DNA from: an uncultured virus (IMG/VR IMGVR_UViG_3300027752_001031)
Lineage: Duplodnaviria; Heunggongvirae; Uroviricota; Caudoviricetes
Virus record (IMG/VR): IMGVR_UViG_3300027752_001031
Direction: 5' to 3' (one strand)
Length of the DNA stretch: 20,000 nt
Shown here: one piece after another, positions 1,156-20,000 of the stretch
Numbering within the stretch: the stretch's first letter is position 1
Layout of the letters: every line of letters begins with the position of its first letter
The notes under the pieces: generated by a model
What the model was told of the DNA's origin: nothing
Databases searched by the model: none
Seen by the model: only the letters and a program-made list of their open reading frames with translations
Translations under genes and position numbers: made by a program

Positions 1156-1480
1156 TTACTTCACTCCAATTCTGGGAATCTTCGTCCCATGTGTATAGTT
1201 TATCGTCTGTTGGGTAAGGGGTTGGCGCTGTCCAGTTGCAAGTATCATCTAGTGTCCAAGACTCATAAGGCTTAGGCGGGATAAAGGCATCTAGCTCAGT
1301 GTCATAACTGAATCCTACGCCTGCAAAGTTCTTGCGAATGTTGCCGTTATAGCTTGTCTGAATCCAAGTGCCACCTAGATTTTCTACAAACCAGTCATAG
1401 CCCTCATTGGGAAAGTCGTTGTCTCCAACTAATACCCTGAGAACGATGTTGTCGTTGTCTATCTCTGCAAAATAACTCAT
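1148..1480 (-). CDS. Phage tail-region hypothetical protein
   Basis: 110 aa with WIQTSYN..RKNFAG.G..YD...DAFIPPKP motif, of the kind that often follows glycine-rich virion genes; ATGA overlap with the upstream gene. Confidence 0.8.
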   Translation of the reverse strand: MSYFAEIDNDNIVLRVLVGDNDFPNEGYDWFVENLGGTWIQTSYNGNIRKNFAGVGFSYDTELDAFIPPKPYESWTLDDTCNWTAPTPYPTDDKLYTWDEDSQNWSEVNE

Positions 1481-2814: not shown

Positions 2815-2816
2815 TG

Positions 2817-3308: not shown

Positions 3309-3310
3309 GA

Positions 3311-3889: not shown

Positions 3890-3890
3890 A

Positions 3891-4373: not shown

Positions 4374-4375
4374 GA

Positions 4376-4933
4376 TTAGAAGCTCCCTGAAGTTCCACCG
4401 ATGATTGGCGCTAGCCCACCATAGTTAGTATTTGCTTTGCCGCCATCCAGGTTAAAGGCTGGGTCGACATAGTCTGTAATGTCTGCAATCACGTGTGTGT
4501 GTACAGTATTTGCTTTTCCGCTAATAGAAGTATTAATTGTAGTGATAAAGTCTGCATTGTCACCAATAGCAGCGGCTAGTTCATTAAGAGTGTCTAGAGT
4601 AGCTGGTGCTCCATCAACAAGGGCTGCGACTGCAGCGTTAATATCTGCAGTAACATCAATATTTAGTTGAGCAGCTGGAACAAATCCGCTTGCATCCAGG
4701 GTAGCAACACCATTTGCTGCACCAGCAGAAGCTAGTGGAACATAGTCTCCTAGAGATGTAGACAAGGCTGTTGTGTCAATAAAGTAAGTAAGACTTGACC
4801 AAACGTTTACCCCATCACCCATTTTGAACTGATTAGTGTCAGTCTCAAAACCGATTTCTCCTGCAGCTAGAACTGGATTAGCGGTAGTCCACTGAGTCCC
4901 AGTTCCTCGACGCTGTTGCATGCGTGTTGCCAT
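4376..4933 (-). CDS. Mtd_N-like tail fibre-associated protein
   Basis: MQQRRGTGTQWTTANPVLAAGEIGFETDTNQFKMGDG and LDTLNELAAAIGD motifs; AAGGAG RBS. Confidence 0.85.
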   Translation of the reverse strand: MATRMQQRRGTGTQWTTANPVLAAGEIGFETDTNQFKMGDGVNVWSSLTYFIDTTALSTSLGDYVPLASAGAANGVATLDASGFVPAAQLNIDVTADINAAVAALVDGAPATLDTLNELAAAIGDNADFITTINTSISGKANTVHTHVIADITDYVDPAFNLDGGKANTNYGGLAPIIGGTSGSF

Positions 4934-4958
4934 TGATGCTCTCCTTATTTACTACTAT

Positions 4959-4967
4959 ATTATAGCA
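4959..4967 (-). promoter_or_regulatory. Extended -10 promoter (TGCTATAAT) for 4376..4933
   Basis: Minus strand reads TGCTATAAT, then an AAGGAG RBS and ATG. Confidence 0.65.
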
Positions 4968-4973
4968 TTAAAA

Positions 4974-5435
4974 TTAATTAAAGTTATCTGTTGCCGTTCC
5001 ACCATTCCATGTGTTATCCCATGAAGTAGTTGAGGCTGTTCCTGCGTCCTGATAATCAGCACCAGCATCTGTTACGATACCGCCATCATAAAAGCGGGTA
5101 ACGATAAATCCGTTTCCGTCAATTGATGTGTCGTGGATGTGGTCTGGTAGCTCTTCTGCATCTGTAAGAGTTGCAATGTATACCCATACGCCGTTAAAGA
5201 AAATTCCCATGCGACCAAAGGTGCTATCTAGATAGATATCTCCTTCGCTAGCACCCTCTGGTGGGGTAGCAGATCTAGCAAGGTTAAGGTCTTGTAGAAG
5301 TGCATCTACATAACCCTTAGTTGTTAGATGTGTGCTTTGAGTAGGAGTGGCAGCTGTGACAGTACCTCCGAAAGTACCGTCATTTGCTATTTGTATTCCA
5401 TTTTTGACTTTAAAGTCTTTGTTAACTGTAGCCAT
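4974..5435 (-). CDS. Putative tail-associated protein
   Basis: 153 aa; N-terminal MATVNKDFKVK identical to 5462..7219; AGGAG RBS. Confidence 0.8.
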   Translation of the reverse strand: MATVNKDFKVKNGIQIANDGTFGGTVTAATPTQSTHLTTKGYVDALLQDLNLARSATPPEGASEGDIYLDSTFGRMGIFFNGVWVYIATLTDAEELPDHIHDTSIDGNGFIVTRFYDGGIVTDAGADYQDAGTASTTSWDNTWNGGTATDNFN

Positions 5436-5461
5436 TAACTGCCACTCCTTTTCTCAATTTA

Positions 5462-7219: not shown

Positions 7220-7238
7220 TTTCTATCTCCTAGTTTGA

Positions 7239-7685
7239 TTATGCCTTGAGACCGAGGCGAGCGTATCGCACGGTCACTGGCTTAATGATTGCGTCTGGGG
7301 TAATCGTCAAAGCGACAGTGTCCCCAGTCCTAGAGACATCAATGGTGCCCATGTTCCCATTATTGTCTATTGTGCCGTACTCTGAAACTGATACGTCAGT
7401 ACCGTCCATTAGTAGGGTCAATTCTGTTGCATAGAAGTAGTTGTCGCCTGCTGTAGTCTTTGAGATTGATACAATGTACTTTACCATTCTCCACTCAGTA
7501 GCGTCAAAGCTGTCTATGATGGTGACATTTGAAATGTCGGTAATAACATTCTCATTATTACCAAAAGATCCAAGGTCAGTAGCCTGTGCGGCCGAAGTAT
7601 CGATCAGGTCGATATAATCCTGTTGAGAGGGACGATCTCCAGTCTCAAAGGTTGATTTCACATAATTAAGGGTAGTTCTAGCCAT
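7239..7685 (-). CDS. Putative tail protein
   Basis: 148 aa; FETGDRPSQQDYIDLID motif; C-terminal KY.V....TE.....SEYG domain resembles the C-terminus of 5462..7219; apparently leaderless. Confidence 0.8.
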   Translation of the reverse strand: MARTTLNYVKSTFETGDRPSQQDYIDLIDTSAAQATDLGSFGNNENVITDISNVTIIDSFDATEWRMVKYIVSISKTTAGDNYFYATELTLLMDGTDVSVSEYGTIDNNGNMGTIDVSRTGDTVALTITPDAIIKPVTVRYARLGLKA

Positions 7686-7715
7686 GTATCTATTATAGCG
7701 TGGTTTTAAACAATC

Positions 7716-8024
7716 TTAAATAATATAGTTACTGTAGCCTATGATCTGTATGCCAATTCCAGGTATATTGTTTGCACCGTAACCAGAAACACCAATATTT
7801 GTGAGCCTAATTCTAAATGGTAGAGTATCTTTTATCTTTATTACGGGATTAGGACTTACGATATTAGAAATGGGGTAGGTCTTTGTCTTTATGGACCTTG
7901 TTTTGGGAGACTTGTCTATGATTTTAGAATTTACATCTATATTTGATATTGATGATATGGGGTAGTTCTTCTGCTTAAGTTCTTTTGTTTTATAATCTTT
8001 AGAATAGATTACTGACTTAGCCAT
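7716..8024 (-). CDS. Basic hypothetical protein
   Basis: 102 aa, Lys/Ile-rich, YPIS repeated; TAATG coupling to the upstream gene. Confidence 0.65.
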   Translation of the reverse strand: MAKSVIYSKDYKTKELKQKNYPISSISNIDVNSKIIDKSPKTRSIKTKTYPISNIVSPNPVIKIKDTLPFRIRLTNIGVSGYGANNIPGIGIQIIGYSNYII

Positions 8025-8428
8025 TAATCAGTTACGTCCTCGACGATTACCAACTTACCCTGAGCTACCGTCCAGACTTGGCTGGTTGCTGCATTTGATA
8101 GCTGTATGTCAAAGATATCTCCAGTCTCTAGCTGCAAAGACTCACTAGCCGTTAGGGATACTGTAAACTCTCCTACTGCATCTTCAGCTAAGGCTGCTGG
8201 AGTAAGGGTTAGAATTACTGAGGCAGTGTCAGTTATGACTCCCAAGTCTGCTGCATTGGTTGGCCTCTTTACTTTCATGGCTATGACCCAGTCCGCAATG
8301 GTCAGCGGTGCCTTGTCGTCGTCAGTTACATATACCGTGAATGCAGCGGTATCTCCTCGAACAACTGTCCAAGTAACTTGTGGAGGTATGTTTCCAACGG
8401 AATATCCAGAATCTCTAAGCGTAGCCAT
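8024..8428 (-). CDS. BppU-like (baseplate-associated) domain protein
   Basis: 134 aa; W.VVRGDT..F.V...D...FDIQL pattern shared with 12506..12880 and 13726..14109. Confidence 0.7.
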   Translation of the reverse strand: MATLRDSGYSVGNIPPQVTWTVVRGDTAAFTVYVTDDDKAPLTIADWVIAMKVKRPTNAADLGVITDTASVILTLTPAALAEDAVGEFTVSLTASESLQLETGDIFDIQLSNAATSQVWTVAQGKLVIVEDVTD

Positions 8429-8454
8429 ACTAATAATTATAACACAGCATTGAG

Positions 8455-8483
8455 TTGAATTTTAGGTAAACTACTGCTATACT
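8455..8483 (+). promoter_or_regulatory. Housekeeping-sigma promoter for the hydrolase pair
   Basis: TTGAAT-17 bp-TATACT with TG extension, back-to-back with the minus-strand -10 at 8436-8441. Confidence 0.7.
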
Positions 8484-8498
8484 TATAAGTCTAAACTA

Positions 8499-8528
8499 CG
8501 GCACCCTTAAAAAGGTGTCTTTTCTTTT
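8499..8528 (+). terminator. Terminator-like hairpin in the 5' leader of the NlpC/P60 gene
   Basis: GGCACC-CTTAAAAA-GGTGTC followed by TTTTCTTTT, directly before the AGGAGG RBS. Confidence 0.4.
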
Positions 8529-8540
8529 AGGAGGTACAAC

Positions 8541-9161
8541 TTGAAAAAGATTGTAATACTAGGAGCGGTAGGAATTTTAATGAGCTGTTCGTCAGCTACC
8601 GTTGCGGATGATAGTGGATCATCGTTTAAAGCTACAAGTGTTGTTTACAGTAGTCCAAATGTTTTGGATATTTCTGTAAATCAAAAGATTGATATTATTG
8701 CTTATACCCTTAAGATGTTGAAAGAACAAGAGCAAGAAAAGCTTGAGCAAGCCAGAGCCCTTGCTGTTACAAAAAATGCTAATGCACTTAGGTATCAAAT
8801 ATCTGAGCTGTCAAAACATATTGATAAAACCAGATATGTGTTTAGTGGCTCTACCCCTGCTGGCTGGGACTGCTCAGGTCTTGTAGTATGGTTTTATGGA
8901 GAGCTGGGAATTGAACTTCCTCATTCAGCAACTAAGCAAGGATTTATTAAGCCAAAGTCTTCTACCCCAATGCCTGGAGACATAGTCGTCTTCCAGTATA
9001 ACGGTGCAAAAAACTTTGTTCATTCGGGCATTTACATTGGAAACAACGAAATAATCCATTCTGGATTCCGTGCTGGTATGCCAACAGCAATTATTGATTT
9101 AGATGACCCAGCTTTTAATGGGCAGACACATTACTTTATAAGGTTAATGGATTCAAAATGA
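8541..9161 (+). CDS. Secreted NlpC/P60-family peptidoglycan endopeptidase
   Basis: YVFSG..P.GWDCSGLV (catalytic Cys), PGDIV.F and HSGIYIG...IIH motifs; N-terminal signal or lipoprotein-like peptide; TTG start with AGGAGG RBS. Confidence 0.9.
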   Translation: MKKIVILGAVGILMSCSSATVADDSGSSFKATSVVYSSPNVLDISVNQKIDIIAYTLKMLKEQEQEKLEQARALAVTKNANALRYQISELSKHIDKTRYVFSGSTPAGWDCSGLVVWFYGELGIELPHSATKQGFIKPKSSTPMPGDIVVFQYNGAKNFVHSGIYIGNNEIIHSGFRAGMPTAIIDLDDPAFNGQTHYFIRLMDSK

Positions 9162-9748
9162 GAAACAAAACTATAGCTAAACTTGGCGTGCCCATTTTAT
9201 TAGCAGCAGCTTTAGCCGAGGCTGGTGCAATGCCAAATCTGGCTGTTTTTGCAGATGAGCCTGTTACTACCCAGACACTGGAAATACCTACTAAGGCTAT
9301 GGGCATTCTAGATATAATGATTTTGAATAAAAGATTTAAAAGATCTACCCCTCAGATTGTAGAAGTAGCGCCATGGCTGAAGCCAGAAATGCAGTCTATA
9401 AAAATATCGGACGCTGAACTAGTTGAGGTACTTCGTAATGTTGGGTTCGAGGGGTATGGCTTGAAGATGGCATGGGCTATCGTACAACAAGAGTCAACAT
9501 CTAGAATTTATGCACACAATAGAAATAGGTCTACGGGTGATAACTCATATGGCCTGTTTCAAATTAACATGATTGATGGCCTTGGCCCTAAAAGACTTGA
9601 GAAGTATGGGCTAGAAAAGAATGAAGATCTTTTTACCCCACTAGTAAATGCCCAGGTTGCTTTCAAGATATCTGGTGGTGGAGCTAATTGGGGTGCGTGG
9701 ACAACTTACAAAAAAGCGCAGGAAAACATTAACCAGTTTCCTGGCTAA
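9158..9748 (+). CDS. Secreted lysozyme-like / lytic transglycosylase protein
   Basis: AWAIVQQES (catalytic Glu), DNSYGLFQIN, N...A..I..GG..WGAW motifs; N-terminal signal peptide; ATGA overlap with the NlpC/P60 gene. Confidence 0.85.
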   Translation: MRNKTIAKLGVPILLAAALAEAGAMPNLAVFADEPVTTQTLEIPTKAMGILDIMILNKRFKRSTPQIVEVAPWLKPEMQSIKISDAELVEVLRNVGFEGYGLKMAWAIVQQESTSRIYAHNRNRSTGDNSYGLFQINMIDGLGPKRLEKYGLEKNEDLFTPLVNAQVAFKISGGGANWGAWTTYKKAQENINQFPG

Positions 9749-10371
9749 GCCAAGTCTCCTATTAGCAACCAAGAGTCCGATGCAGTTTTTACAATGGTTG
9801 CACCCGAATACTGCTCCCTTAGAGTTACTAAAGATTCTGCGCTAGCAAGAATTACCCCAGTTGCTGGGGCGATGGTAACTGTACCTAGGCCATATCTAGC
9901 TATGTCAATTCTTTGTCCAATTGCAAATGGTACTGTAGCATTTGTCGGAATTGTAATTGTTCTATTTGATGCTGAATCCATTATGATAAATTGACCAGAG
10001 TCAGACGCCTGAACCGTGTAGTCTGCAATCTTTGTTAAAAGCTCGGAACCATCATTTACGTATCTCCAGGATCCATTGTAGTAATACTGTATCTGGTTTA
10101 TCTGAGCTCCAGCATCTGTCTGTCTAACAAAGCATACAAGACCATTGATAGGTGTTGGCAAAGCTGTGTCTCTTGCTGTAGCGTTTTGAAAATTATTAAT
10201 GCCAGCTTCTGAGCGAACCACGTCCTCGAAGATTACTGTGCTTGAAAAGGTGTTAGTGTTTAACCAGTTATAGGCGGCAGCTGTGTTTGTTGCACCACCG
10301 ACGGCATACCAAGTATCTGTATTTTCATCATACATGTACGCTAGTTTTCCGCTGGTACTTATAGTTGCCAT
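9745..10371 (-). CDS. Putative tail-associated protein
   Basis: 208 aa; TITIPTNATVPFAIGQRIDI...QYSGATIVKT..DSWLLIGDL fibre C-terminal domain; stop codon overlaps that of the convergent gene. Confidence 0.8.
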   Translation of the reverse strand: MATISTSGKLAYMYDENTDTWYAVGGATNTAAAYNWLNTNTFSSTVIFEDVVRSEAGINNFQNATARDTALPTPINGLVCFVRQTDAGAQINQIQYYYNGSWRYVNDGSELLTKIADYTVQASDSGQFIIMDSASNRTITIPTNATVPFAIGQRIDIARYGLGTVTIAPATGVILASAESLVTLREQYSGATIVKTASDSWLLIGDLA

Positions 10372-10673
10372 TAGGAGATCTCTACCCCACTAAAATGAAA
10401 ATTAACTGTTGTTGCAGATGCTGAAGCACTTATAATTTCTAACTCTCCCATTACCTGCTTAATGTCCCAGACTATAGAATCATTTGCCAAAATCTCTGCA
10501 GTTTCCAGTATCGAAACACCATTAAGATCTATAGATACTGTTGCCGAAGTTCCAGCGGTATTTGTTATTATAATATTAGTAACTACTGAAGTAGTTGATG
10601 CTGGGACTGAATAAAGAGTTGTCTCAGTTAGTGATGCTGCTCCACGAAAAAATTGCTTGCTTACTGTTGCCAT
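10371..10673 (-). CDS. Small virion structural protein
   Basis: 100 aa; TTLYSVPASTTSVVTNIIITN...FHFSGVEI; AAAGGAGG RBS. Confidence 0.8.
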   Translation of the reverse strand: MATVSKQFFRGAASLTETTLYSVPASTTSVVTNIIITNTAGTSATVSIDLNGVSILETAEILANDSIVWDIKQVMGELEIISASASATTVNFHFSGVEIS

Positions 10674-10687
10674 AGACTCCTCCTTTC

Positions 10688-11314
10688 TTAGTAAACGCCC
10701 ATAATTGATGATATCTCTAGTGACTGGATATCAATTTGTTCCCAGGATAGCCCTGATGCTTCTGATGATTTTGCTGTAAGTACGTACCCGTTTGTTCCTG
10801 CTGCTAGCCTATTTAAAGAAGATCCACCAATACCAACAAGTAGGTCTCCCTTTGTCTGGACAGCTGTTTCAAAATCGTTGACTCTAATCCAGCTATTTAC
10901 TGCAGCGTCCCAAACAAAAGTTTCTTTTAGTGGGGAGTCTTTATCTACCCAGATCATTCCATCGGCAAGGTTGGTTGTAGGCTGTGTGTCACTGTATAGT
11001 GCCGTAGAATAGACTACACCTTGGTCTGCGGATGATGCAGAGTCCATCCATATAAACCCGTCATCTGGCGACACAGGCTCTGTGACGACATAGTCTGAAC
11101 CAATACCAGATTGATTTATAAGGTCAATCTGTTCCTGAACTGCATTAAGGTGGTATGCAATAGATGGGTTTTGAAGTAGTGCGGTGTTTTCATTTGTAGG
11201 ATTATAAGTTAGAGATCCGTAGTGATATAGCTTTATTGCTTCCTGAATATCTGCGGAATCGGCCAACGAAGGAATCTTCGTATTATATATTGAGCCTATA
11301 TTTTCAGCAGCCAT
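10688..11314 (-). CDS. Putative tail-associated protein
   Basis: 208 aa; P....DG.IW.D motif twice and TKGDLLVG...RLAAGTNGYVLTA..S...GLSW motif. Confidence 0.8.
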   Translation of the reverse strand: MAAENIGSIYNTKIPSLADSADIQEAIKLYHYGSLTYNPTNENTALLQNPSIAYHLNAVQEQIDLINQSGIGSDYVVTEPVSPDDGFIWMDSASSADQGVVYSTALYSDTQPTTNLADGMIWVDKDSPLKETFVWDAAVNSWIRVNDFETAVQTKGDLLVGIGGSSLNRLAAGTNGYVLTAKSSEASGLSWEQIDIQSLEISSIMGVY

Positions 11315-11333
11315 ATTTTATCACCATTTTAAA

Positions 11334-11924
11334 TTATACCACAGTAATGATTAAATGAATAACCTTATTACCAGAGATGGCGGTCCATGTGTCAGAGATG
11401 AGTTCAACGCCAGAGAATGTCATGTTTATGGTAGCTATCCCGCTTGCTACCAGGATACTGTTTATTGTGTAAGCTGCGGAGACAGGGGGTTGAATCGTTA
11501 CCCCAGGAGCTATTGATATCTCATACTGAATGTCATAGTTTTCTGGTATTCCGCCAGTTCCTGAAGAATACCCTGTTGGCAGCTCTATCTCAAACTCTAT
11601 TGTAGATGAGCCTGCTGAGAAGGTTGCACTTTGATTTTTCGCTACTGTATTAGGTACAAGCTTAAATCCTGGAATCCATGCCAAGACCTGAGTCCCTGGA
11701 ATAAAGTTGTGCTGGTATAAGAAAAGATAATTTGCATCGGAGGCTGCGGTGTTTATGCATAGGTCATACCTAGCAATAGCTGGAGAACCTGCTATGTTTC
11801 CTGGTATGTTTGGGTCACCAGAGGATAGATAAAATTGTGAGCCTGGAATACCAAAGATTCCCTTATCTACATTTACTGTTACTGATGCTGGTCCATCTAG
11901 AATTGACAAACTGCTTACCACCAC
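11334..11924 (-). CDS. Virion-module hypothetical protein (paralog of 11931..12506)
   Basis: 196 aa, GTG start; shares GSQ, YL.LYQ, L.PNT and terminal ITVV with its neighbour. Confidence 0.75.
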   Translation of the reverse strand: MVVSSLSILDGPASVTVNVDKGIFGIPGSQFYLSSGDPNIPGNIAGSPAIARYDLCINTAASDANYLFLYQHNFIPGTQVLAWIPGFKLVPNTVAKNQSATFSAGSSTIEFEIELPTGYSSGTGGIPENYDIQYEISIAPGVTIQPPVSAAYTINSILVASGIATINMTFSGVELISDTWTAISGNKVIHLIITVV

Positions 11925-11930
11925 TACCCC

Positions 11931-12506
11931 CTAAACAACCGTAATCAGTAGCTGTACTACCTTTTCAGAGCTGAGCGAAGACCATGTAGATCCATCAAAC
12001 TCTGCTGCAGATATTGTAATTGGCAATACGATGATGCCGTCAAATGTTGACAGCTCTCCTACCGTAATTGATGATGCTACTGGCAAATTATTCACTACGG
12101 TATGCTGAACGTTAAAGTTAGCAGATGTTACGTTGCCTACTCCGCTTAATGGAACTATGTTAATCACTGGAATAAAAACCTGGTACTGTCCATTTACGAA
12201 GGCTCCAGTGACATTGGTTAGGTATGTGTTTGGTATCAGTCTAAGAAGTCTTAGCCAAGTGTTAGAGCCGTCTACGCTAACGTACTGGTAAAGATATAGA
12301 TACTCATCGTCGGATGACGATAGGTTTATGAACATGTCGAAGATCTGTGGGGTTTCTCCAAGAACACCTGGGACTGATGGCTTGCCGAGCCCTACAAATA
12401 TCTGGCTTCCCCTGTCGCCCTGTGGACCAAAGTTAACATTTACTTCTCTGGTTGTTGGGCCACCAAGTACTGTTATGTCATCTGTCGACAGTAGTACTTC
12501 AGCCAT
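11931..12506 (-). CDS. Virion-module hypothetical protein
   Basis: 191 aa; FGPQGDRGSQIFVG.G.P motif; TAATG coupling. Confidence 0.8.
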   Translation of the reverse strand: MAEVLLSTDDITVLGGPTTREVNVNFGPQGDRGSQIFVGLGKPSVPGVLGETPQIFDMFINLSSSDDEYLYLYQYVSVDGSNTWLRLLRLIPNTYLTNVTGAFVNGQYQVFIPVINIVPLSGVGNVTSANFNVQHTVVNNLPVASSITVGELSTFDGIIVLPITISAAEFDGSTWSSLSSEKVVQLLITVV

Positions 12507-12880
12507 TATGCTGCTCCTGTAACCTGATCGGTGACGGTGATGCTACCAGTTAAGAGGGTATAGACGAGATCGTAAGAGCCAACCTGTGTAGTCTTTATTT
12601 CAACATCATACACGTACTGAGTTCCAGCAGTAATTAGTGCTCCGTCTGTGGCCCTAATGGCACAAAGAATGTGGCTGCCGTCTGCAGACTTTTCAGAGAA
12701 TGCCTCTACCTGATTGGCAACACCCGAGGTTCCCCTCTTGTCTGACATTGTAAAAGAAATGTCTGCGTTTGCATAGTTCGTCAGGTCAAAGGCTGCGCCA
12801 GTGGAGTCTTTAGGGTATACCCGAAACTCATAGGTGTCGCCCTTATAATATGAAATATTGAAAGTACCTGGAAATGACAT
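12506..12880 (-). CDS. BppU-like domain protein
   Basis: 124 aa; YKGDTYEF...KD..G..FDLT and YVYDVEI...LL.G.ITV motifs; leaderless start. Confidence 0.75.
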   Translation of the reverse strand: MSFPGTFNISYYKGDTYEFRVYPKDSTGAAFDLTNYANADISFTMSDKRGTSGVANQVEAFSEKSADGSHILCAIRATDGALITAGTQYVYDVEIKTTQVGSYDLVYTLLTGSITVTDQVTGAA

Positions 12881-12897
12881 AAATATATTATAGCACG

Positions 12898-13617
12898 TTA
12901 GCTTACTGAAATGTGCAGTGATTGCATTCTGACCGCACAGTCCAGGTCTGACCTCATCTGTAACACAATGCCAGCAACCCTGTCTGCTTCTTTTTCAAGG
13001 TATACAGTCTGGTTAACCGTGAACTCGTAGTCGTATTGATACTTAAGATTTCCAATAAAGTTTGTAACAGCGCTCTGAGTTCCTGGCATAAGAGACCTAA
13101 GCCACAATTCAGTGTTGTTTCCAAATGTAGATACGTAGATCTTGTAGGATATGTCAATCTTAGAACCCATAGCTAGTGGCTTCATGTTTATTCTCTTGGC
13201 AACGTCGCTATAGAGACCAACACTATCTTTTGGCAAATATCTTTCATTTGTTTTCTTGCTTAGTTCACCAATGCTGACTGTAACCCAGCCATCATCGCCT
13301 CTGTCTGCACCGAGCCTAACAAGCTTATCTGATGAGTTTTCGTAATATCCCCATCCAGGATTTTGTCCAGAAACAGATTGGTAAGACTGTCCATCTTTTC
13401 CGTTTTTGCCAGCAGGTCCTGGTGCTCCCTTTGGTCCTGCTTTTCCATCTGGTCCAGCTTCGCCCTTTTCACCTTTAAGGCCTCGCTGTCCCTCTTGACC
13501 AGGTACTGGCATATAGACTAAGTTAGAAACGTCTGGAGTGGGTGGTTGCTGCTGCTTCATAGCAGATGCGTAGTCAACCTTTTTATTAGATGGAAAATCC
13601 ATATTCTTACCAGACAA
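12898..13617 (-). CDS. Collagen-like (Gly-X-Y) repeat protein
   Basis: GQEGQRGLKGEKGEAGPDGKAGPKGAPGPAGKNGKDGQ; TTG start with AGGAG RBS (an alternative ATG lies 5 codons in). Confidence 0.85.
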   Translation of the reverse strand: MSGKNMDFPSNKKVDYASAMKQQQPPTPDVSNLVYMPVPGQEGQRGLKGEKGEAGPDGKAGPKGAPGPAGKNGKDGQSYQSVSGQNPGWGYYENSSDKLVRLGADRGDDGWVTVSIGELSKKTNERYLPKDSVGLYSDVAKRINMKPLAMGSKIDISYKIYVSTFGNNTELWLRSLMPGTQSAVTNFIGNLKYQYDYEFTVNQTVYLEKEADRVAGIVLQMRSDLDCAVRMQSLHISVS

Positions 13618-13639
13618 AAATGTGCTCCTAATTATTTGT

Positions 13640-13726
13640 TTATTTTACTACAAAAACTTTATCTTTAATTCTAATTATTGCTGGTAAGTGCGTTGTTGGA
13701 GCTGATACTTTAACGACTACTGACAT
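13640..13726 (-). CDS. 28-aa microprotein MSVVVKVSAPTTHLPAIIRIKDKVFVVK
   Basis: Manual translation; GGAGG RBS, TAATG coupling to 13726..14109, fills the intergenic gap. Confidence 0.65.
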   Translation of the reverse strand: MSVVVKVSAPTTHLPAIIRIKDKVFVVK

Positions 13727-14109
13727 TACAGATTTCCTCCAGTTACATCTGAAAGAACTTTTATGGTTCCAAGAACTGGAGTCCAAATAGTGCTTACGTC
13801 TAGAGTTACCTGTAAGTCAAATGCAAGCTCTGCGGATAGTGACCTATAGCCAGTGCCCCAGTACTCTGTTATCTCGTAAGGTGCAGTTATGTCCACATAC
13901 CCAACGCCTGGAGTTACTGTTAGCTGATCCAGGATGTCTCCAGAAAAATCGTAGGTGGTTGCTAGGTACTCCCACGTTGATGTATCGTAATAAGTGGCCT
14001 CGTCGCTATCCAAGAACTCTACTCTAATTGTTGCGGTATCGCCACGTACGACCTGCCAGGTAATGTTGGCGGGGTCGGCACCGAAAACTTCTGGGGAACA
14101 TACAGTCAT
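13726..14109 (-). CDS. BppU-like domain protein
   Basis: 127 aa; WQVVRGDTATIRVEF and FDLQV...WTPV.G.I.V..DVT; paralog of 8024..8428. Confidence 0.75.
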   Translation of the reverse strand: MTVCSPEVFGADPANITWQVVRGDTATIRVEFLDSDEATYYDTSTWEYLATTYDFSGDILDQLTVTPGVGYVDITAPYEITEYWGTGYRSLSAELAFDLQVTLDVSTIWTPVLGTIKVLSDVTGGNL

Positions 14110-14134
14110 AGTAATTAATTATATCACTAAATAT

Positions 14135-14190
14135 TGAAAAGGACTAGCACCCAGAGCGGTGGGTATGAGAGACATTCTGGGTACTAGCCT
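14135..14190 (-). ncRNA. Candidate ~55-nt single-hairpin small RNA
   Basis: TGATATAAT (14197-14205) lies 6 nt before AGGCTAGTACCCAGA-20 nt loop-TCTGGGTGCTAGTCCTTTT; one G-U pair works only on the minus strand. Confidence 0.55.
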
Positions 14191-14350
14191 ATATAGATTA
14201 TATCATAAGGTAACAGAATGATAACGGTAAATGATTATCAATCAATGAAGATTATTCTAAAAAGTAATCAAGAAGTAGAAGATTCTTCGGTAAAGAGTAT
14301 TATATATACAATCGTTATAAACATGTTATAGAAGAAATCAAGAAAAAAGG

Positions 14351-14378
14351 TTGACAATCATCAGAGTTGTGGTATTGT
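14351..14378 (+). promoter_or_regulatory. Promoter-like TTGACA-16 bp-TATTGT with no downstream ORF
   Basis: Consensus -35 and TG-extended -10 pointing into an AT-rich tract. Confidence 0.45.
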
Positions 14379-14484
14379 AGATCTTGTTATATTTATTATA
14401 TATTAAAAACTATTTCTTAAATGACATATCTTCTATATACTATATATAGGTTTATATATAACTGTCATATAAAAAGCTATAATA

Positions 14485-14787
14485 CTACTTATCTTTATTA
14501 CTAGCAAGATAATCTATAAACTTATCATAAAGATCATCCAATTTACGATCGAGCTTTTCAACCTTTAAATAAGTTTCGTTGGAAACGCTATCCGACATAT
14601 TCTGTCGAGCTTCAAGTCTATTTACCTGGTCCTTCATCGAACCACCACCATTTGGCTTAAACTCTGCTCTTATTTCATTAAAGTAGTGTTTGACCAACCA
14701 CCGAACTCCAAGGGCAGTAAAAGATAGTATTGTGGAAACAGAGATTATGATTCCAAGTAGTATTGAGGTTGTCTGCAGCGGGGTCAT
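14485..14787 (-). CDS. Single-TM membrane protein with coiled coil (actinophage holin-like/DUF2746-like)
   Basis: N-terminal hydrophobic helix, then FKPNGGGSMKDQVNRLE, resembling the NGGSSxxD motif of actinophage membrane proteins; leaderless start. Confidence 0.7.
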   Translation of the reverse strand: MTPLQTTSILLGIIISVSTILSFTALGVRWLVKHYFNEIRAEFKPNGGGSMKDQVNRLEARQNMSDSVSNETYLKVEKLDRKLDDLYDKFIDYLASNKDK

Positions 14788-15014
14788 AGTTACTATTATA
14801 GTTTATTTATTTTAAAAACTACTACATGTTGTGTCCCCCAATCGTCTGATATCCAAGCATTTGAGTTCTTTCGATTTTTAAAGCGTAGCGTAAAGTTCGT
14901 CGGCGGAATAAGAGATCCCCAAACACAAAAAAACAGATAAATATGCAATACACTTGCAATTTTCTCTGATGTGTGTTAGTATTCACATATCCAATAGCAA
15001 CCATATATCCCTTT

Positions 15015-15086
15015 ATAACGAAATGATAACGATTATATAACTTTTATGTAACGGTATTATAACGAAAAGGTAACGAATAGATAACG
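15015..15086 (+). repeat. Seven-copy RTAAC array with exact 11-bp period
   Basis: TAAC at 15016, 15027, 15038, 15049, 15060, 15071 and 15082, with variable spacers. Confidence 0.9.
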
Positions 15087-15343
15087 TTTATATAAACTAA
15101 CATATATATCTATAAAAGTATGGTATATAACATAATGGACTATAACAGATAACATTCATATCGAGCTATATGACCTATATCAGCCTATGTCCAATAGCAG
15201 ACAAAGATGTCATCGCCTGGATATATGCAATTAATGCCCATTTCTTGATATCAGACTAGGGTTATGTCTTGTATTGAGGGCTTTTTTGCATCAGAGCAGA
15301 CGAGCTGCTTGTTATACCTTCGAATTTATGATAGACTATATAT

Positions 15344-16279: not shown

Positions 16280-16328
16280 CGGCGTGTCGGCTTGACTTTT
16301 TGACATTCTTGGTATAGTCTAGTAGTAT
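16280..16328 (+). promoter_or_regulatory. Tandem early promoters preceded by CGGCGTGTCG
   Basis: TTGACT(16292)-17-TAGTCT(16315) and TTGACA(16300)-17-TAGTAT(16323). Confidence 0.75.
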
Positions 16329-16366
16329 AAATAAAGATAAAGAAATAAAAAGAAAGGAAGTTCAAA

Positions 16367-16513
16367 ATGACTTCAACAGTATCAATCATCAAAGGTGAAT
16401 TTGCTCTATGCGAGATTTGCTCCAACCACACTCCAAGAGTGTCCGTTGTAGAAAACGGCTACCAAGAAATTGGTTGCCAGTATTGCTTCGAAGCCTATGG
16501 TGAAATAAACTAA
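16367..16513 (+). CDS. 48-aa zinc-ribbon-like microprotein
   Basis: MTSTVSIIKGEFALCEICSNHTPRVSVVENGYQEIGCQYCFEAYGEIN; two CxxC; GAAAGGA RBS. Confidence 0.75.
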   Translation: MTSTVSIIKGEFALCEICSNHTPRVSVVENGYQEIGCQYCFEAYGEIN

Positions 16514-16519
16514 CCATAG

Positions 16520-16541
16520 TGTCTGCCCCTAGTAGTATAAT
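16520..16541 (+). promoter_or_regulatory. PafBC-type promoter TGTC-N12-TATAAT
   Basis: TGTCTGCCCCTAGTAGTATAAT. Confidence 0.7.
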
Positions 16542-16562
16542 AATCTTAGAAAGGATAATAAA

Positions 16563-16724
16563 ATGCGATTCAATAAAATAGATAACCTAAACCTCAAAGA
16601 GGTCGAGCAGGAACTAGATACCCTGATAGCTATCGCAGGTGATGAGCCTACACTAGAAACTATCGAAGAAGTATCTGCTCTAATCAAAGTAGCGAGAGCC
16701 TTAGGCTCAGATAGGAAATGGTAA
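16563..16724 (+). CDS. 53-aa hypothetical microprotein
   Basis: MRFNKIDNLNLKEVEQELD...GSDRKW; GAAAGGATAA RBS. Confidence 0.75.
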   Translation: MRFNKIDNLNLKEVEQELDTLIAIAGDEPTLETIEEVSALIKVARALGSDRKW

Positions 16725-16819
16725 TGATAGAATTGACTTTTGACACTTGGGAAGAATTTGATAGGGCTATTGGTTCAATAGTTACCCTTGAAACTGCTAT
16801 CGCTACCCCCAGCGAATAG
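16724..16819 (+). CDS. 31-aa hypothetical microprotein
   Basis: MIELTFDTWEEFDRAIGSIVTLETAIATPSE; TAATG coupling. Confidence 0.6.
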   Translation: MIELTFDTWEEFDRAIGSIVTLETAIATPSE

Positions 16820-16840
16820 CAGGAATTTTTTTCCATTCAT

Positions 16841-16994
16841 CGGCGTGTCGCCTTGACAATATGCAAAAAGGATGCGGGCCAGATCTAGTGGTTAGTAGCC
16901 CTTATGACCACTATATGTAGGCCTAGAAAAAATGTAACAGATTGATAACAATAGGCGTGTTGCACTTGACAAATAGGATAATCTAGTATAGAGT
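16841..16994 (+). promoter_or_regulatory. Regulatory cassette 1: GGCGTGTC motif, tandem NrdR-like boxes, RTAAC pair, promoter
   Basis: CGGCGTGTCGCCTTGACAAT at 16841; boxes at 16876 and 16908; GTAAC/ATAAC at 16934/16945; AGGCGTGTTG at 16953; TTGACA(16966)-17-TAGAGT(16989). Confidence 0.75.
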
Positions 16995-17028
16995 TATAGC
17001 ATAACAAGAAATAGAAAAGGATAAAGAA

Positions 17029-17169
17029 ATGTACAGAATCACAGTAGCAAAAGCAGGGGATCCATTCACTGGCGGACTATACGCCACTACCTCAGTAGAT
17101 AACGCATTGGCTTACTATGAGGCAAATGGTTACACAGTGATAATGATTGAATCAACATCAGTCATCTAA
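17029..17169 (+). CDS. 46-aa hypothetical microprotein
   Basis: MYRITVAKAGDPFTGGLYATTSVDNALAYYEANGYTVIMIESTSVI; AAAGGATAA RBS. Confidence 0.7.
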   Translation: MYRITVAKAGDPFTGGLYATTSVDNALAYYEANGYTVIMIESTSVI

Positions 17170-17173
17170 ACAC

Positions 17174-17202
17174 TTGACAATGTCACACCCACCCTATAGA
17201 CT
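17174..17202 (+). promoter_or_regulatory. Hybrid promoter: TTGACA-17-TAGACT plus TGTC-N12-TAGACT
   Basis: TTGACAATGTCACACCCACCCTATAGACT. Confidence 0.75.
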
Positions 17203-17230
17203 TATAGCATAAATAGAAAAGGATAAGCAA

Positions 17231-17368
17231 ATGAATACCAGGACAGTAATAGGTTCATCAGTAGCCCTAGCAGTAATCTACTTCAGCTACCTAGCAACTA
17301 GGTTGCTTCAGTTGGGCTATGAAATTAGAATCGTCACACCAACAGAGTTTTTCTTGGGTGGTTTCTAA
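17231..17368 (+). CDS. 45-aa membrane microprotein
   Basis: MNTRTVIGSSVALAVIYFSYLATRLLQLGY...; hydrophobic helix; AAAGGATAAG RBS. Confidence 0.7.
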   Translation: MNTRTVIGSSVALAVIYFSYLATRLLQLGYEIRIVTPTEFFLGGF

Positions 17369-17478
17369 TGTGGGATACACTACAGTCTTGGGTGCTAGTA
17401 GCATCACTGGTTATAGGTGTTGGATACACTACCCTTCAGGCATACCGCCTAGCCAAATGGAAAGAAGATAACCAGTAA
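17368..17478 (+). CDS. 36-aa membrane microprotein
   Basis: MWDTLQSWVLVASLVIGVGYTTLQAYRLAKWKEDNQ; TAATG coupling. Confidence 0.65.
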   Translation: MWDTLQSWVLVASLVIGVGYTTLQAYRLAKWKEDNQ

Positions 17479-17480
17479 CA

Positions 17481-17637
17481 CGGCGTGTCGCCTTGACAAT
17501 TTTTTCGATAGGCAGCGCCCCCTACATGTAGTGGTTTAATGATTTAAGAACACTATATGTAGCCCCCCGAAAATTTATAACGAATGTGTAACACTACGGC
17601 GTGTCGTTTGTATAATGTCGGTGACCTGTGATAGGCT
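17481..17637 (+). promoter_or_regulatory. Regulatory cassette 2: GGCGTGTC motif, tandem NrdR-like boxes, RTAAC pair, PafBC-type promoter
   Basis: CGGCGTGTCGCCTTGACAAT at 17481; boxes at 17519 and 17550; ATAAC/GTAAC at 17577/17588; CGGCGTGTCG at 17597; TGTCGGTG-8-TAGGCT at 17616-17637. Confidence 0.8.
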
Positions 17638-17664
17638 ATAGCCATAACAGATAAAGGATAGTAA

Positions 17665-17850
17665 ATGAAATCAGTGTCAATACCAACCAACGATGTAAAC
17701 TCCGTAATGGGTCGCAAGACCACCTGCTCTGGCTGTGGCTATGTCCAGTCAACTGTAACGAGCTACTACCACGACCGCAAGCTTTGGAAGGCAACTCACA
17801 CTCTGGCATTCTGCCGTGATGAGAAATTGTTGCTGATGGCACACAGCTAA
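17665..17850 (+). CDS. 61-aa Cys/His microprotein (possible Zn binding)
   Basis: CSGC...H....C; AAAGGATA RBS; in the ORF track. Confidence 0.7.
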   Translation: MKSVSIPTNDVNSVMGRKTTCSGCGYVQSTVTSYYHDRKLWKATHTLAFCRDEKLLLMAHS

Positions 17851-17852
17851 AA

Positions 17853-17874
17853 TGTCTGACCCCTGTGCTAAGAT
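17853..17874 (+). promoter_or_regulatory. PafBC-type promoter TGTC-N12-TAAGAT
   Basis: TGTCTGACCCCTGTGCTAAGAT. Confidence 0.75.
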
Positions 17875-17900
17875 AAAACTATAATCGAAAGGATAACAAA

Positions 17901-18071
17901 ATGGCATACAGCAGAGAAGCTCACGAGCTACTACAAAAAACACTAGAGGAGCTAATAGCCCAACAAGGCGAATTGGCTTATCCAGCAATGGTTGGCTACC
18001 TAATGGTAAATGTTCCATTGGAAGACGCTAAGCGAATCGCAAAGCACGTTTCAGAAAAGGCGGTGGCATAA
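17901..18071 (+). CDS. 56-aa hypothetical microprotein
   Basis: MAYSREAHELLQKTLEELIAQQGELAYPAMVGYLMVNV...; GAAAGGATAA RBS. Confidence 0.75.
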   Translation: MAYSREAHELLQKTLEELIAQQGELAYPAMVGYLMVNVPLEDAKRIAKHVSEKAVA

Positions 18072-18220
18072 TGTCAGAATCACTTTGTGTCTACTGCCTC
18101 AACATTGTCAATGACTTTGTTTGTCCTAACTGTAATGAGTATGACGGGCTAATGCCCATTCCTGATGCCAAGAGGTATCTAGGCGAAGACTTTCCAGAGG
18201 AGTATAACGAGTATGTCTAA
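18071..18220 (+). CDS. 49-aa zinc-ribbon-like microprotein
   Basis: MSESLCVYCLNIVNDFVCPNCNEYDGLMP...; two CxxC; TAATG coupling. Confidence 0.75.
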   Translation: MSESLCVYCLNIVNDFVCPNCNEYDGLMPIPDAKRYLGEDFPEEYNEYV

Positions 18221-18320
18221 AGAACTAACTACCGCAGAATTAGAGGAACTAATCTTCAAGATAGACTTGATGTTGTCTGATGATACTGGTAAGCTATTCG
18301 TAACAAAGGAGAATAACTAA
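18213..18320 (+). CDS. 35-aa hypothetical microprotein
   Basis: MSKELTTAELEELIFKIDLMLSDDTGKLFVTKENN; GAGGAG RBS. Confidence 0.65.
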   Translation: MSKELTTAELEELIFKIDLMLSDDTGKLFVTKENN

Positions 18321-18457
18321 TGACATTCGGACTTCTAGTAATAATAATTGCCAGCTCATTTTTTGCTGGTGTCCTTACTCAGGGATTGTATGCCGAGGCT
18401 CAAGAGTCTAAGGCTATCGAGAGAAACAAGAGGGCTACATTCATAGCTCCATTCTAA
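18320..18457 (+). CDS. 45-aa membrane microprotein
   Basis: MTFGLLVIIIASSFFAGVLTQGLYAEAQ...; AAGGAG RBS and TAATG coupling. Confidence 0.7.
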   Translation: MTFGLLVIIIASSFFAGVLTQGLYAEAQESKAIERNKRATFIAPF

Positions 18458-18458
18458 A

Positions 18459-18550
18459 TTTGCTCTGGGATTGAAAACCCCAAACCAAGCGAGCAATACA
18501 TATTCCTCCAGCGGAAAGTTTCTTATCCTTTCATTCCGTTGGGGGAATAG
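18459..18550 (+). ncRNA. Candidate structured RNA with anti-Shine-Dalgarno-like loop
   Basis: TTGCTC/GAGCAA-closed domain (18460-18496), then a 16-bp stem 18501-18516/18534-18549 (two G-U pairs valid only on +) with loop AGUUUCUUAUCCUUUCA. Confidence 0.6.
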
Positions 18551-18623
18551 CTGGCGGCCCCCATTAGGTGAAAAAAATTCAATTAAGATCAATTAAGATA
18601 ACCCCCCGAACCCCTGGGTAAAA

Positions 18624-18645
18624 TGTCAGACCCCTGTGTTATAGT
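18624..18645 (+). promoter_or_regulatory. PafBC-type promoter TGTC-N12-TATAGT (leaderless gene follows)
   Basis: TGTCAGACCCCTGTGTTATAGT, 7 nt before the ATG at 18653. Confidence 0.75.
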
Positions 18646-18652
18646 ATAAACT

Positions 18653-18823
18653 ATGAAGAAGAAAACCAAGAAACTAGGAATGGCAAACGAGGCTAGGCGT
18701 AAGCTTGAGTCGCAAGCCCTATTCTTTGAGATGATGAAGAATCCTCACTTGGTCGCTACCCCTAAAAAATACAAAGGCAGTCGCCAGAGTAACATAAATA
18801 AAGCTATTAGAGAGAGTGAATAA
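18653..18823 (+). CDS. 56-aa basic microprotein
   Basis: MKKKTKKLGMANEARRKLESQALFFEMMKNPHLVATPKKYKGSRQSNINKAIRESE. Confidence 0.7.
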   Translation: MKKKTKKLGMANEARRKLESQALFFEMMKNPHLVATPKKYKGSRQSNINKAIRESE

Positions 18824-18924
18824 TGAACTACCCCTGCCAATGTGAATGTGGATGTGAGCAAGGCTACGATTATCAGTATTCAAGTATTTGTACAGAATGT
18901 CAGAATGGAGAGAAACATGGATGA
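18823..18924 (+). CDS. 33-aa Cys-rich microprotein
   Basis: MNYPCQCECGCEQGYDYQYSSICTECQNGEKHG; TAATG coupling. Confidence 0.65.
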   Translation: MNYPCQCECGCEQGYDYQYSSICTECQNGEKHG

Positions 18925-19039
18925 GCAAGCAATAGAGATTAGAGCAAACCTAGCAGAATACTATGCAACCCCCGAAGCCTACACGCTGTTTGACTTTGAA
19001 GAAATCTTCCAGGACCGAGACCCTTTTGAGTTTCTATAA
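18917..19039 (+). CDS. 40-aa acidic microprotein
   Basis: MDEQAIEIRANLAEYYATPEAYTLFDFEEIFQDRDPFEFL; GGAG RBS supports a start at 18917 rather than 18842. Confidence 0.7.
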   Translation: MDEQAIEIRANLAEYYATPEAYTLFDFEEIFQDRDPFEFL

Positions 19040-19061
19040 TGTCTGACCCCTATGTTAGGAT
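19040..19061 (+). promoter_or_regulatory. PafBC-type promoter TGTC-N12-TAGGAT (leaderless gene follows)
   Basis: TGTCTGACCCCTATGTTAGGAT, 6 nt before the ATG at 19068. Confidence 0.75.
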
Positions 19062-19067
19062 ACTAGT

Positions 19068-19208
19068 ATGATAAGTTATGTATGTGAAGACTGTAATCGC
19101 TTTATAAGTAATGTAGACACTGTCTATTCTTATTCCCTCAAAAATGTCTGTGGCAGATGTTATGCTATACAATGTGGACACCCCTCAACAAGAAAGTTGG
19201 TAAAGTAA
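19068..19208 (+). CDS. 46-aa zinc-finger-like microprotein
   Basis: MISYVCEDCNRFISNVDTVYSYSLKNVCGRCYAIQCGHPSTRKLVK; TAATG coupling to the next gene. Confidence 0.6.
   Translation: MISYVCEDCNRFISNVDTVYSYSLKNVCGRCYAIQCGHPSTRKLVK
19145..19166 (+). promoter_or_regulatory. PafBC-type promoter TGTC-N12-TATGCT inside a micro-ORF
   Basis: AATGTCTGTGGCAGATGTTATGCT. Confidence 0.55.
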
Positions 19209-19405
19209 TGAGTAAGTATCCTGATGTTCAAGTAGACCTAGTTGGCGAAGATGGCAACGCTATGGCAATAATGGCTAGAGTGTCTTCCGCTTTACGCCGT
19301 GCAGGAGTTAGCAGGGAAGAACGTGACGCTTACTATGAGCAGTCCACTAGCGGCGACTATGATAATGTATTGCGAGTAGCAATGGAATGGGTGGAGGTAA
19401 ACTAA
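19208..19405 (+). CDS. Small phage protein with GEDGNA motif
   Basis: MSKYPDVQVDLVGEDGNAMAIMARVSSALRRAG...SGDYDNVL; start at the TAATG junction is more likely than 19157. Confidence 0.8.
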   Translation: MSKYPDVQVDLVGEDGNAMAIMARVSSALRRAGVSREERDAYYEQSTSGDYDNVLRVAMEWVEVN

Positions 19406-19677
19406 TGGGCTCACTTCAAGCAGTAGAGATGGCACGGCTATCAAAGAATATAGAAGATGGTATCGCTTGGCACTTACAAAGTAATCACTTTCCTCCAGTG
19501 ACTAGGTCCATGGTCCAGGCTTGCATAGAGTCTATTGACGCTTGCAATGAAGGTAACTTTGATAAACTAATTAGTCTACCCGAAGGAGTAGGGTATAAAG
19601 GACTAACCGTTGCTCCAGCTAATGCTATTGTAGAGCAACACCACCTAGACGCTTGGATAGAATACGAGGACCTATAA
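19405..19677 (+). CDS. Phage hypothetical protein (WHLQSNHFPPV / IVEQHHLDAW motifs)
   Basis: GGAGG RBS and TAATG coupling place the start at 19405. Confidence 0.8.
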   Translation: MGSLQAVEMARLSKNIEDGIAWHLQSNHFPPVTRSMVQACIESIDACNEGNFDKLISLPEGVGYKGLTVAPANAIVEQHHLDAWIEYEDL

Positions 19678-19856
19678 TGAGATACACTGTTGAAGAAACC
19701 TATATCTATCAAGTAGAGGCAGACACGCCAGAGGAGGCTGTCGATGACTTTCATGAGTATGCCCAGGCCGATACCTCCGAAGCCGAGGATGAAACGGGAG
19801 TGGTATTCTTGCAGAACACTCTTACCGTGCATGACACTAGTGGCAAAGAGGTATAG
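19677..19856 (+). CDS. 59-aa acidic hypothetical protein
   Basis: MRYTVEETYIYQVEADTPEEAVDDF...; GAGGA RBS and TAATG coupling. Confidence 0.75.
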   Translation: MRYTVEETYIYQVEADTPEEAVDDFHEYAQADTSEAEDETGVVFLQNTLTVHDTSGKEV

Positions 19857-19993
19857 TGAGTAAATTATCAGAGCACTTTGGGCACGATGTTGTAATCGCT
19901 AAGTATACCGATGGGATATCGGATCCATCCTATTGCGTTGAGTGTGAAACTTGTTATGAAGTTATTCTTGATGAAGAGTTGACAAACGTCTAG
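19856..19993 (+). CDS. 45-aa His/Cys microprotein (H..H...ECETC)
   Basis: GTG start overlapping the upstream TAG; MSKLSEHFGHDVVIAKY...CVECETCYEVILDEELTNV; GAGGT RBS. Confidence 0.7.
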   Translation: MSKLSEHFGHDVVIAKYTDGISDPSYCVECETCYEVILDEELTNV

Positions 19994-20000
19994 CCAGCTG

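Follow-up and report, generated by a model that had tools for sequence, protein, structure and literature searches.

TGTC-box promoters in the small-gene clusters of an aquatic actinophage family and their likeness to PafBC-dependent promoters

What reads a short box that stands, again and again, at the same distance ahead of the -10 elements of a phage's small genes? The locus that raises this question lies in a 20,000-nucleotide (nt) stretch from an uncultured virus of the Caudoviricetes (IMG/VR record IMGVR_UViG_3300027752_001031), hereafter the window. A preliminary description had reported seven early promoters there, in each of which TGTC is followed exactly 12 nt later by TAnnnT. It had compared them with the promoters that the activator PafBC serves when mycobacteria respond to DNA damage (RecA-NDp promoters), and had proposed that the phage uses this host activator as a temporal switch.

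On the plus strand of positions 16300-19200, TGTC-N12-TAnnnT occurs eight times. At any other spacing from 5 to 21 nt the same interval yields between zero and two sites, and 2000 dinucleotide-preserving shuffles of it averaged 0.16 sites, with never more than 3. The whole window holds 11 matches when both strands are counted, where 3.41 +/- 1.71 would be expected, and 0 of 200 shuffles attained that number. The fixed 12-nt distance is thus borne out, and more strongly than had been claimed, and the seven positions first described stand together with their second hexamers (all TGTC sites in Table 1 except that at 18274). The eighth site, 18274 (TAAGCT), had been overlooked; it lies inside the open reading frame (ORF) 18213-18320, 24 nt ahead of the start at 18320, and a similar site in G002, the closest complete relative, precedes an ORF of 43 amino acids (aa). 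Six of the original seven sites are intergenic, as stated, the exception being 19145, within ORF 19068-19208. The distance from the end of the site to the next ORF start is 6-41 nt for all eight, the start for the last site being taken as 19208 after a PHROG match.

The hexamer TAnnnT is present at the -10 of every one of the eight sites, and in six TGn stands immediately 5' of it. That most sites lack a -35 element also holds: five score at most 3/6 and have no TTG, a perfect -35 is found in one (17181, TTGACA with a 17-nt spacer), and partial ones stand at 18274 (TTGATG) and 17616 (TTGTAT). Three of the eight copies have the 17-mer AATGTCwGACCCCTrTG in common (0.20 expected). The position after TGTC, position 5, is a purine in three window sites and T in five; position 6 is G in seven. 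Because the ATG follows the -10 of the 18624 and 19040 sites by only 6-7 nt (Table 1), the mRNAs from these two promoters are probably leaderless. Similarly close spacing is found at three sites in G002, and leaderless mRNAs are common in actinobacteria. Judged on their sequence, the eight sites are real promoters, and very probably they are promoters read by host RNA polymerase.

The pattern extends well beyond the window. Scanning IMG/VR with the 17-mer gave at least 146 matching stretches, several with 3-7 copies; the family figures that follow are among the matches listed. These loci (at least 146) hold at least 735 unique sites, with the consensus aAAATGTCAGwCCCcTnTGnTAnAmT, and TGTC-N12-TAnnnT is enriched on one strand in nearly every one of them (e.g., 29 vs 1, or 17 vs 0). 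With the TGTC columns left unscored, 606 sites were found on the motif strand and 45 on the opposite one, and the four unscored positions were conserved at 96% (T), 94% (G), 96% (T) and 95% (C); with the -10 columns unscored, T, A and T reached 97%, 98% and 98%. A spacing of 12 nt is found at 721 sites, against about 65-267 at other spacings, where the 267 sites at spacing 7 arise because TA lies inside the motif itself; for the stricter pattern AATGTC...TGnTAnnnT the figures are 332 at spacing 12 and at most 11 elsewhere. The flanks are conserved to a lesser degree (A-tract 62-77%, CCCC 47-65%, TG 71-73%). Over the 735 sites, position 5 is A in 73% and G in 9% (purine 82%), position 6 is G in 86%, and 73% have an A 6-7 nt downstream of the -10, with an A-rich leader and a purine-rich, Shine-Dalgarno-like ribosome-binding region. 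A -35 matching at 5/6 or better also occurs in 107 of 725 family sites (15%). Fifty-five non-overlapping loci of at least 6 kb form, together with the window, one gene-sharing family. We conclude that the predicted TGTC-box promoters are a real promoter class, specific to one phage family, with a sigma-A-type -10, usually preceded by TGn, mostly without a -35, and with TGTC at about -28 to -25. TGTC is 94-96% invariant at a fixed register while the spacer varies, which points to selection rather than recent copying.

Two other ways of parsing the motif were tried and rejected. One takes the box itself as a -35 (CwGACC) with a downstream TATAAC as its -10; the downstream hexamer is conserved at 40-73% vs 97-100% for the upstream TA...T, and position 4 is mostly A. 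The other is a WhiA site, whose consensus is given as GACAC in the available part of a published account (PMC10243135), read as GACA on the opposite strand of the box. The base 5' of TGTC is A and not G, and the box lies downstream of the -35 position.

Where the class sits in the genome bears on when it might act. In the window the TGTC-box promoters are confined to the small-gene cluster, and the layout is the same in G002. This 111-kb genome carries 24 sites on its minus strand and 3 on its plus strand, with 18 within one 14-kb stretch, a block of small genes whose transcription runs away from the structural ones; matches outside the block lack the flanking consensus. TGTC sites are clustered in the same way in four other complete relatives. 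The block starts with canonical TTGAC-N17-TAnnnT promoters, each behind a second conserved box, GGCGTGTCG, and the TGTC class comes after them; the window shows this order too, with canonical promoters (16300, 16966) preceding the TGTC class. Since promoters of the canonical -35/-10 type head the cluster, a second wave may be what the TGTC class represents, the word "early" being read here from gene layout. The cluster probably serves host takeover; no Pfam family was found in its 19 ORFs. Two marine metatranscriptome runs of a single study yield contigs that resemble the window at 85-99% and fall on parts of 16280-20000; DNA may be present in such libraries and start positions cannot be read from the contigs, which are no evidence of expression or start sites.

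The host phylum, as predicted from phage genes, is Actinomycetota, because WhiB is found in all five complete relatives, structural genes, among them that of the prohead protease, resemble those of Streptomyces phages, and some starts are probably leaderless. WhiB scores above the Pfam cut-off in 5/5 of these relatives and, among 14 control genomes, only in that of Corynebacterium; the protease shares about 55% identity, along half its length, with the proteases of Stanwilliamsviridae that infect Streptomyces. The gene whiB is described as an actinophage marker (PMC10202952). The window itself has no whiB. A tblastn search with a relative's WhiB matched 497 phage records, almost all named for Mycobacterium, Streptomyces, Microbacterium, Rhodococcus or Gordonia hosts. 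Mycobacterium as the host, which the comparison in the preliminary description implied, does not hold up: the window is about 42% GC overall (34-52%), and its DNA recurs in metagenome runs of marine, brine, seawater and sea-ice origin (14 studies), the best of which may be the source sample. For comparison, a Planktophila host has 46.5% GC and its phages have 44.8% (PMC10202952). We regard the phage as a siphovirus of roughly 100 kb that infects a low-GC marine actinobacterium, and it was in this phylum that PafBC was described. A cyanophage was considered and rejected; matches to Synechococcus phages are weak, limited to fibre repeats and cover 17% of the query, and the WhiB and protease results stand against it. 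Searching genome contigs with the phage WhiB gave a single match, in a Tissierellaceae metagenome-assembled genome, of no use for naming the host; looking up WhiB and GroES in a protein atlas did not point to a host either, and a literature search on Nanopelagicales and the proteasome locus found no paper.

The comparison with PafBC can now be made position by position. In Mycobacterium smegmatis, according to the available part of the published account (PMC8635444), the PafBC motif in vivo is tGTCgg(N10)tA(N3)T, with lower case for positions at most 50% conserved; its 5' part lies at -23 to -28 without a -35, two arginines of the helix-turn-helix (HTH) of PafB read the GTC triplet, and throughout the actinobacteria the GTC of recA promoters is strictly conserved. 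The accessible portions of two further papers extend the motif to other actinobacteria including Streptomyces (PMC8223512, PMC5087735). All eight window sites agree, in the same register, with every upper-case position of the motif as quoted in that account. The phage sites share with PafBC promoters the TAnnnT -10, the missing -35, an invariant GTC within TGTC at -28 to -25, 12 nt before the -10, a frequent G at position 6, and the phylum of the host. They differ in being phage-borne and present in at least eight copies per cluster, in their flanks (A-tract, CCCC, TGn), and in having A or T rather than g at position 5. The consensus comes from Mycobacterium and other actinobacteria, whereas the predicted phage host is a marine low-GC actinobacterium. 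The older RecA-NDp consensus, quoted in the preliminary description, is tTGTCRgtg-8-TAnnnT. Its core is matched in TGTC and spacing by 8/8 sites, and in the purine at position 5 by only 3/8; the 17616 copy does read TGTCGGTG-8-TAGGCT, as reported, and is the nearest of the window sites to the host PafBC consensus.

The PafBC-type reading therefore stands in part. The promoters are real, most have no -35, the TGTC register is equal and the phylum is right; the Mycobacterium host falls away, the flanks hold more than the consensus does, and cultured relatives show no enrichment (see below). Host PafBC is in our judgment the leading candidate for the reader of the box, unproven and somewhat short of an even chance, because the box matches exactly the GTC register of the only known actinobacterial -26 activator and no phage candidate was detected. 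Under this proposal a factor would dock on the -26 box and so replace the contact of sigma region 4 with the -35. The best candidate for it would be an HTH-WYL activator of the PafBC type in the host, which would work by "sigma adaptation" and be switched on by single-stranded DNA (ssDNA) from the entry or replication of phage DNA. Canonical promoters without the TGTC box would fire first and the TGTC class second. In its full form, which we put forward only tentatively, the proposal is that a globally distributed aquatic family of actinophages of about 100 kb ties ten to thirty small takeover genes per genome to the host's ssDNA-sensing PafBC through a copied -26/-10 promoter, the phage DNA being the signal for the second wave.

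Several observations weigh against PafBC as the reader. The A-tract, CCCC and TG are conserved in the box and yet lie outside the published host consensus, five of the eight window sites have T at position 5, and the extended -10 may let RNA polymerase start without an activator. The listed loci all belong to one family, so that conservation of the motif would be expected equally whether the host supplies the reader or the phages have kept one of their own. Among cultured relatives there is no enrichment over a reversed-pattern control, either in the Streptomyces phages Jay2Jay and Blueeyedbeauty (forward/reverse 4/15 and 3/7; controls 7/17 and 7/9) or in the Rhodococcus phages Grayson, Weasels2 and Dorin (4/16, 8/12 and 6/11; controls 11/15, 14/16 and 7/8). 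The -35-less TGTC class is therefore a trait of the aquatic family; this result weakens the case for a general use of PafBC by actinophages, and for the present family it is neutral or slightly negative. A literature search on PafBC, RecA-NDp promoters and phages found, among the papers listed, none linking phage promoters to the motif.

A factor encoded by the phage itself, immediate-early or carried in the virion, might instead bind AAAATGTCAGwCCCC and recruit or remodel host sigma A, as MotA and AsiA do in T4, and the likeness to PafBC would then reflect convergence on an HTH that reads GTC/GAC. The canonical promoters at the start of the cluster could make such a factor first. It would suit a box longer than the host consensus and a motif that is limited to one phage family and absent from cultured relatives on PafBC-bearing hosts. 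WhiB, present in all five complete relatives, is a binder of sigma-A region 4 according to the available part of PMC10243135, and PafBC has itself been likened to T4 AsiA/MotA (PMC8635444, the part cited above). The five relatives also share a small ORF with a weak r4_2-like HTH, under the cut-off in 5/5 and located among replication genes in G002. However, the phage WYL activator that the preliminary description had advised looking for was found in 0/5 complete relatives, as were Sigma70_r2 and, over the cut-off, HTH_11; the Pfam families AsiA and MotCF were found in 0/5 as well, but the controls were silent too, so that this last result is uninformative. The five complete genomes have 37 protein clusters in common, two of them in the small-gene block. 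One is a DUF932 protein, whose gene lies behind a TGTC-box promoter, and the other a 100-aa protein, whose gene is in that part of the block which has the TGTC boxes; none of the proteins encoded upstream of the TGTC-class promoters is common to all five. The most widespread neighbour, a 90-aa protein (19405-19677) found in 36 of the 55 loci listed, gave a confident model (predicted local distance difference test score, pLDDT, 86.8; predicted template modelling score, pTM, 0.77) with no DNA-binding or other solved match. It has no Pfam or Protein Data Bank sequence match and no Foldseek match at E <= 0.001, and it offers no clue to the reader of the box; its invariant residues are H23, N27, P30, P31, M36, P59 and L81. 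On this explanation the exact match to the GTC register would also have to be a coincidence, and we consider a phage-encoded reader unlikely.

It is also conceivable that no activator is needed. The sites would then be extended -10 promoters, with the box serving as the operator of a shut-off repressor (of phage or host) or as an element that tunes strength, and with a rigid spacing that derives from a copied cassette. Extended -10 promoters (TGnTAnnnT) resemble the TGTC class in that most sites of the latter have TGn (6/8 in the window, 71-73% in the family) and the -35 is dispensable, and one family site in about seven (the 15% given above) carries a good -35. Metagenome variants moreover seem to swap gene cassettes at promoter borders, so that promoters would move as modules. 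However, such promoters have no invariant box at -26, whereas TGTC is kept at 94-96% at one register over hundreds of diverged sites with varying spacers; and the two window sites without TGn, one of which (16520) also lacks a -35, still keep the box. An activator-independent class thus seems rather improbable to us. We give still less credence to a different host activator that works near -26 by sigma adaptation, either another HTH-WYL protein or a member of some other family. It would accommodate the additional conserved flanks, which differ from the PafBC consensus, but the GTC register equals that of PafBC, and we know of no other sigma-adaptation activator with a TGTC box. According to the available part of one paper, which names AfsR as an instance, sigma adaptation probably has a wider distribution among actinobacteria (PMC11804915).

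Whichever protein reads the box, the class has partial parallels in known phages. The middle promoters of T4, which work by "sigma appropriation" (MotA box plus AsiA), likewise combine a host-type -10 with a box that takes the place of the -35 at a fixed short distance, 12 +/- 1 from MotA box to -10, and they too come after a first wave of canonical promoters, an order that is here read from gene layout. They differ in the sequence of the box, and the host here is an actinobacterium. Jay2Jay, a Streptomyces phage of the Stanwilliamsviridae and a distant structural relative, has in its terminal repeat small genes each with its own promoter, -10s of the TG-TAGACT type and, in several, TGYC 12 nt upstream of the -10, as in the window. 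Unlike the window, it keeps the -35 (TTGTAn or TTGCAt, 17-nt spacer), and its TGYC varies (TGCC, TGCT). On the minus strand at 7100-10430 of Jay2Jay 1-14000 (L170), the arrangement reads TTGTAnnTGYC-N12-TG-TAGACT, a -35-bearing cousin of the TGTC motif.

The second box, GGCGTGTCG, is found in the window at 16281-16289, 16842-16850, 17482-17490 and 17598-17606, with a degenerate copy at 16954-16962. In the first promoters of the cluster it stands 1-3 nt 5' of TTGAC or TTGAT; at the copies 16842 and 17482, TTGACA is present and a -10 is absent. Among the loci listed, 45 of 56 have the box, with 129 copies on the motif strand vs 67 on the opposite one, and TTGAY follows 68 of the 129; in 5/5 complete genomes it is confined to the small-gene block. 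On its other strand GGCGTGTCG holds GACAC, the WhiA consensus mentioned above, and these phages encode WhiB. TGTGA-N6-TCACA palindromes, which we take to be CRP/GlxR-like, lie beside GGCGTGTCG boxes in several relatives (e.g., L060 12891-12950, L062 10898-10960, L023 9826-9890), whereas the window showed no such palindrome. Two modules of about 200 nt in intergenic DNA, 16851-16960 and 17492-17600, have blocks in common and contain long hairpins at about 16881-16921 and 17521-17562 (-25.0 and -22.6 kcal/mol for the stretches folded), without an Rfam match. Lying between the first operons, these modules could act as terminators or attenuators or encode small RNAs. Metagenome contigs join across 17170-17635 and 16513-16840, with a different TGTC-type promoter-like sequence between, so that gene cassettes seem to be swapped there among strains.

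Table 1. Promoters and other features of the window (coordinates in nt; -10 hexamers follow TGTC by 12 nt in TGTC-box sites)
Feature	Position	Strand	Context
First cluster promoter, canonical: GGCGTGTCG box 16281-16289, -35 TTGACA 16300-16305, 17-nt spacer, -10 TAGTAT 16323-16328	16281..16328	+	before ORF 16367-16513
TGTC-box promoter 1: TGTC 16520, -10 TATAAT 16536-16541, without TGn, without -35	16516..16541	+	before ORF 16563-16724
Canonical promoter: degenerate box GGCGTGTTG 16954-16962, TTGACA 16966-16971, 17-nt spacer, TAGAGT 16989-16994	16954..16994	+	before ORF 17029-17169
Hybrid promoter: -35 TTGACA 17174-17179, 17-nt spacer, TGTC 17181, -10 TAGACT 17197-17202	17174..17202	+	before ORFs 17231-17368 and 17368-17478
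TGTC-box promoter: GGCGTGTCG box 17598-17606, TTGTAT, TGTCGGTG at 17616, TGa-TAGGCT 17632-17637	17598..17637	+	before ORF 17665-17850
TGTC-box promoter AAAATGTCTGACCCCTGTGCTAAGAT: TGTC 17853, TAAGAT	17849..17874	+	before ORF 17901-18071 and the coupled ORFs after it
TGTC-box promoter: TGTC 18274, TGg-TAAGCT	18270..18295	+	inside ORF 18213-18320, before ORF 18320-18457
TGTC-box promoter AAAATGTCAGACCCCTGTGTTATAGT: TGTC 18624, TATAGT	18620..18645	+	ORF 18653-18823, ATG 7 nt past -10
TGTC-box promoter TAATGTCTGACCCCTATGTTAGGAT: TGTC 19040, TAGGAT	19036..19061	+	ORF 19068-19208, ATG 6 nt past -10
TGTC-box promoter: TGTC 19145, TGt-TATGCT	19141..19166	+	inside ORF 19068-19208, before 65-aa ORF 19208-19405 (phrog_1933)
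Small-gene cluster: 19 ORFs, 33-90 aa, 7 with CxxC	16367..19993	+	direction: away from structural genes
Divergent AT-rich region, 34% GC, 11-bp phased ATAACG-type repeats	14788..15343	.	between leftward structural and rightward genes

Within the cluster, micro-proteins encoded at 16367-16513, 17665-17850, 18071-18220, 18823-18924, 19068-19208 and 19856-19993 have one or two CxxC pairs of zinc-ribbon-like appearance; that they bind RNA polymerase or other host targets is a possibility. Upstream of the cluster, ATAACG-type repeats are phased at 11 and 22 nt in an AT-rich region (14000-15343) that may be an origin or a regulatory region. Positions 1-10473 of the window are identical to the IMG/VR fragment G001, which carries siphovirus genes for the portal, protease and capsid and one of 2494 aa for the tape measure. 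The gene set of G002 comprises DnaE, RecA, NrdI/E/F, GroES, two carbamoyltransferases, several 2OG-Fe(II) oxygenases and glycosyltransferases, a large auxiliary set for a 111-kb siphovirus. Neither Rfam families nor tRNAs were found in the window, and it has no nucleotide match, near or distant, among 50,697 phage records.

If a PafBC-type activator does read the box, no earlier case would be known in which a phage takes a host's DNA-damage activator for its temporal switch. Bacteria that are among the most abundant in aquatic habitats would then carry a DNA-damage alarm that also times phage development, and the reach of sigma adaptation would widen beyond the stress response of mycobacteria to include phages. 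Should the reader be a phage protein, it would be an as yet undiscovered actinobacterial counterpart of T4 MotA/AsiA. Either way, the family supplies over 700 naturally occurring versions of a -26 box that can be studied, and the box is a simple marker of the small-gene cluster in these phages.

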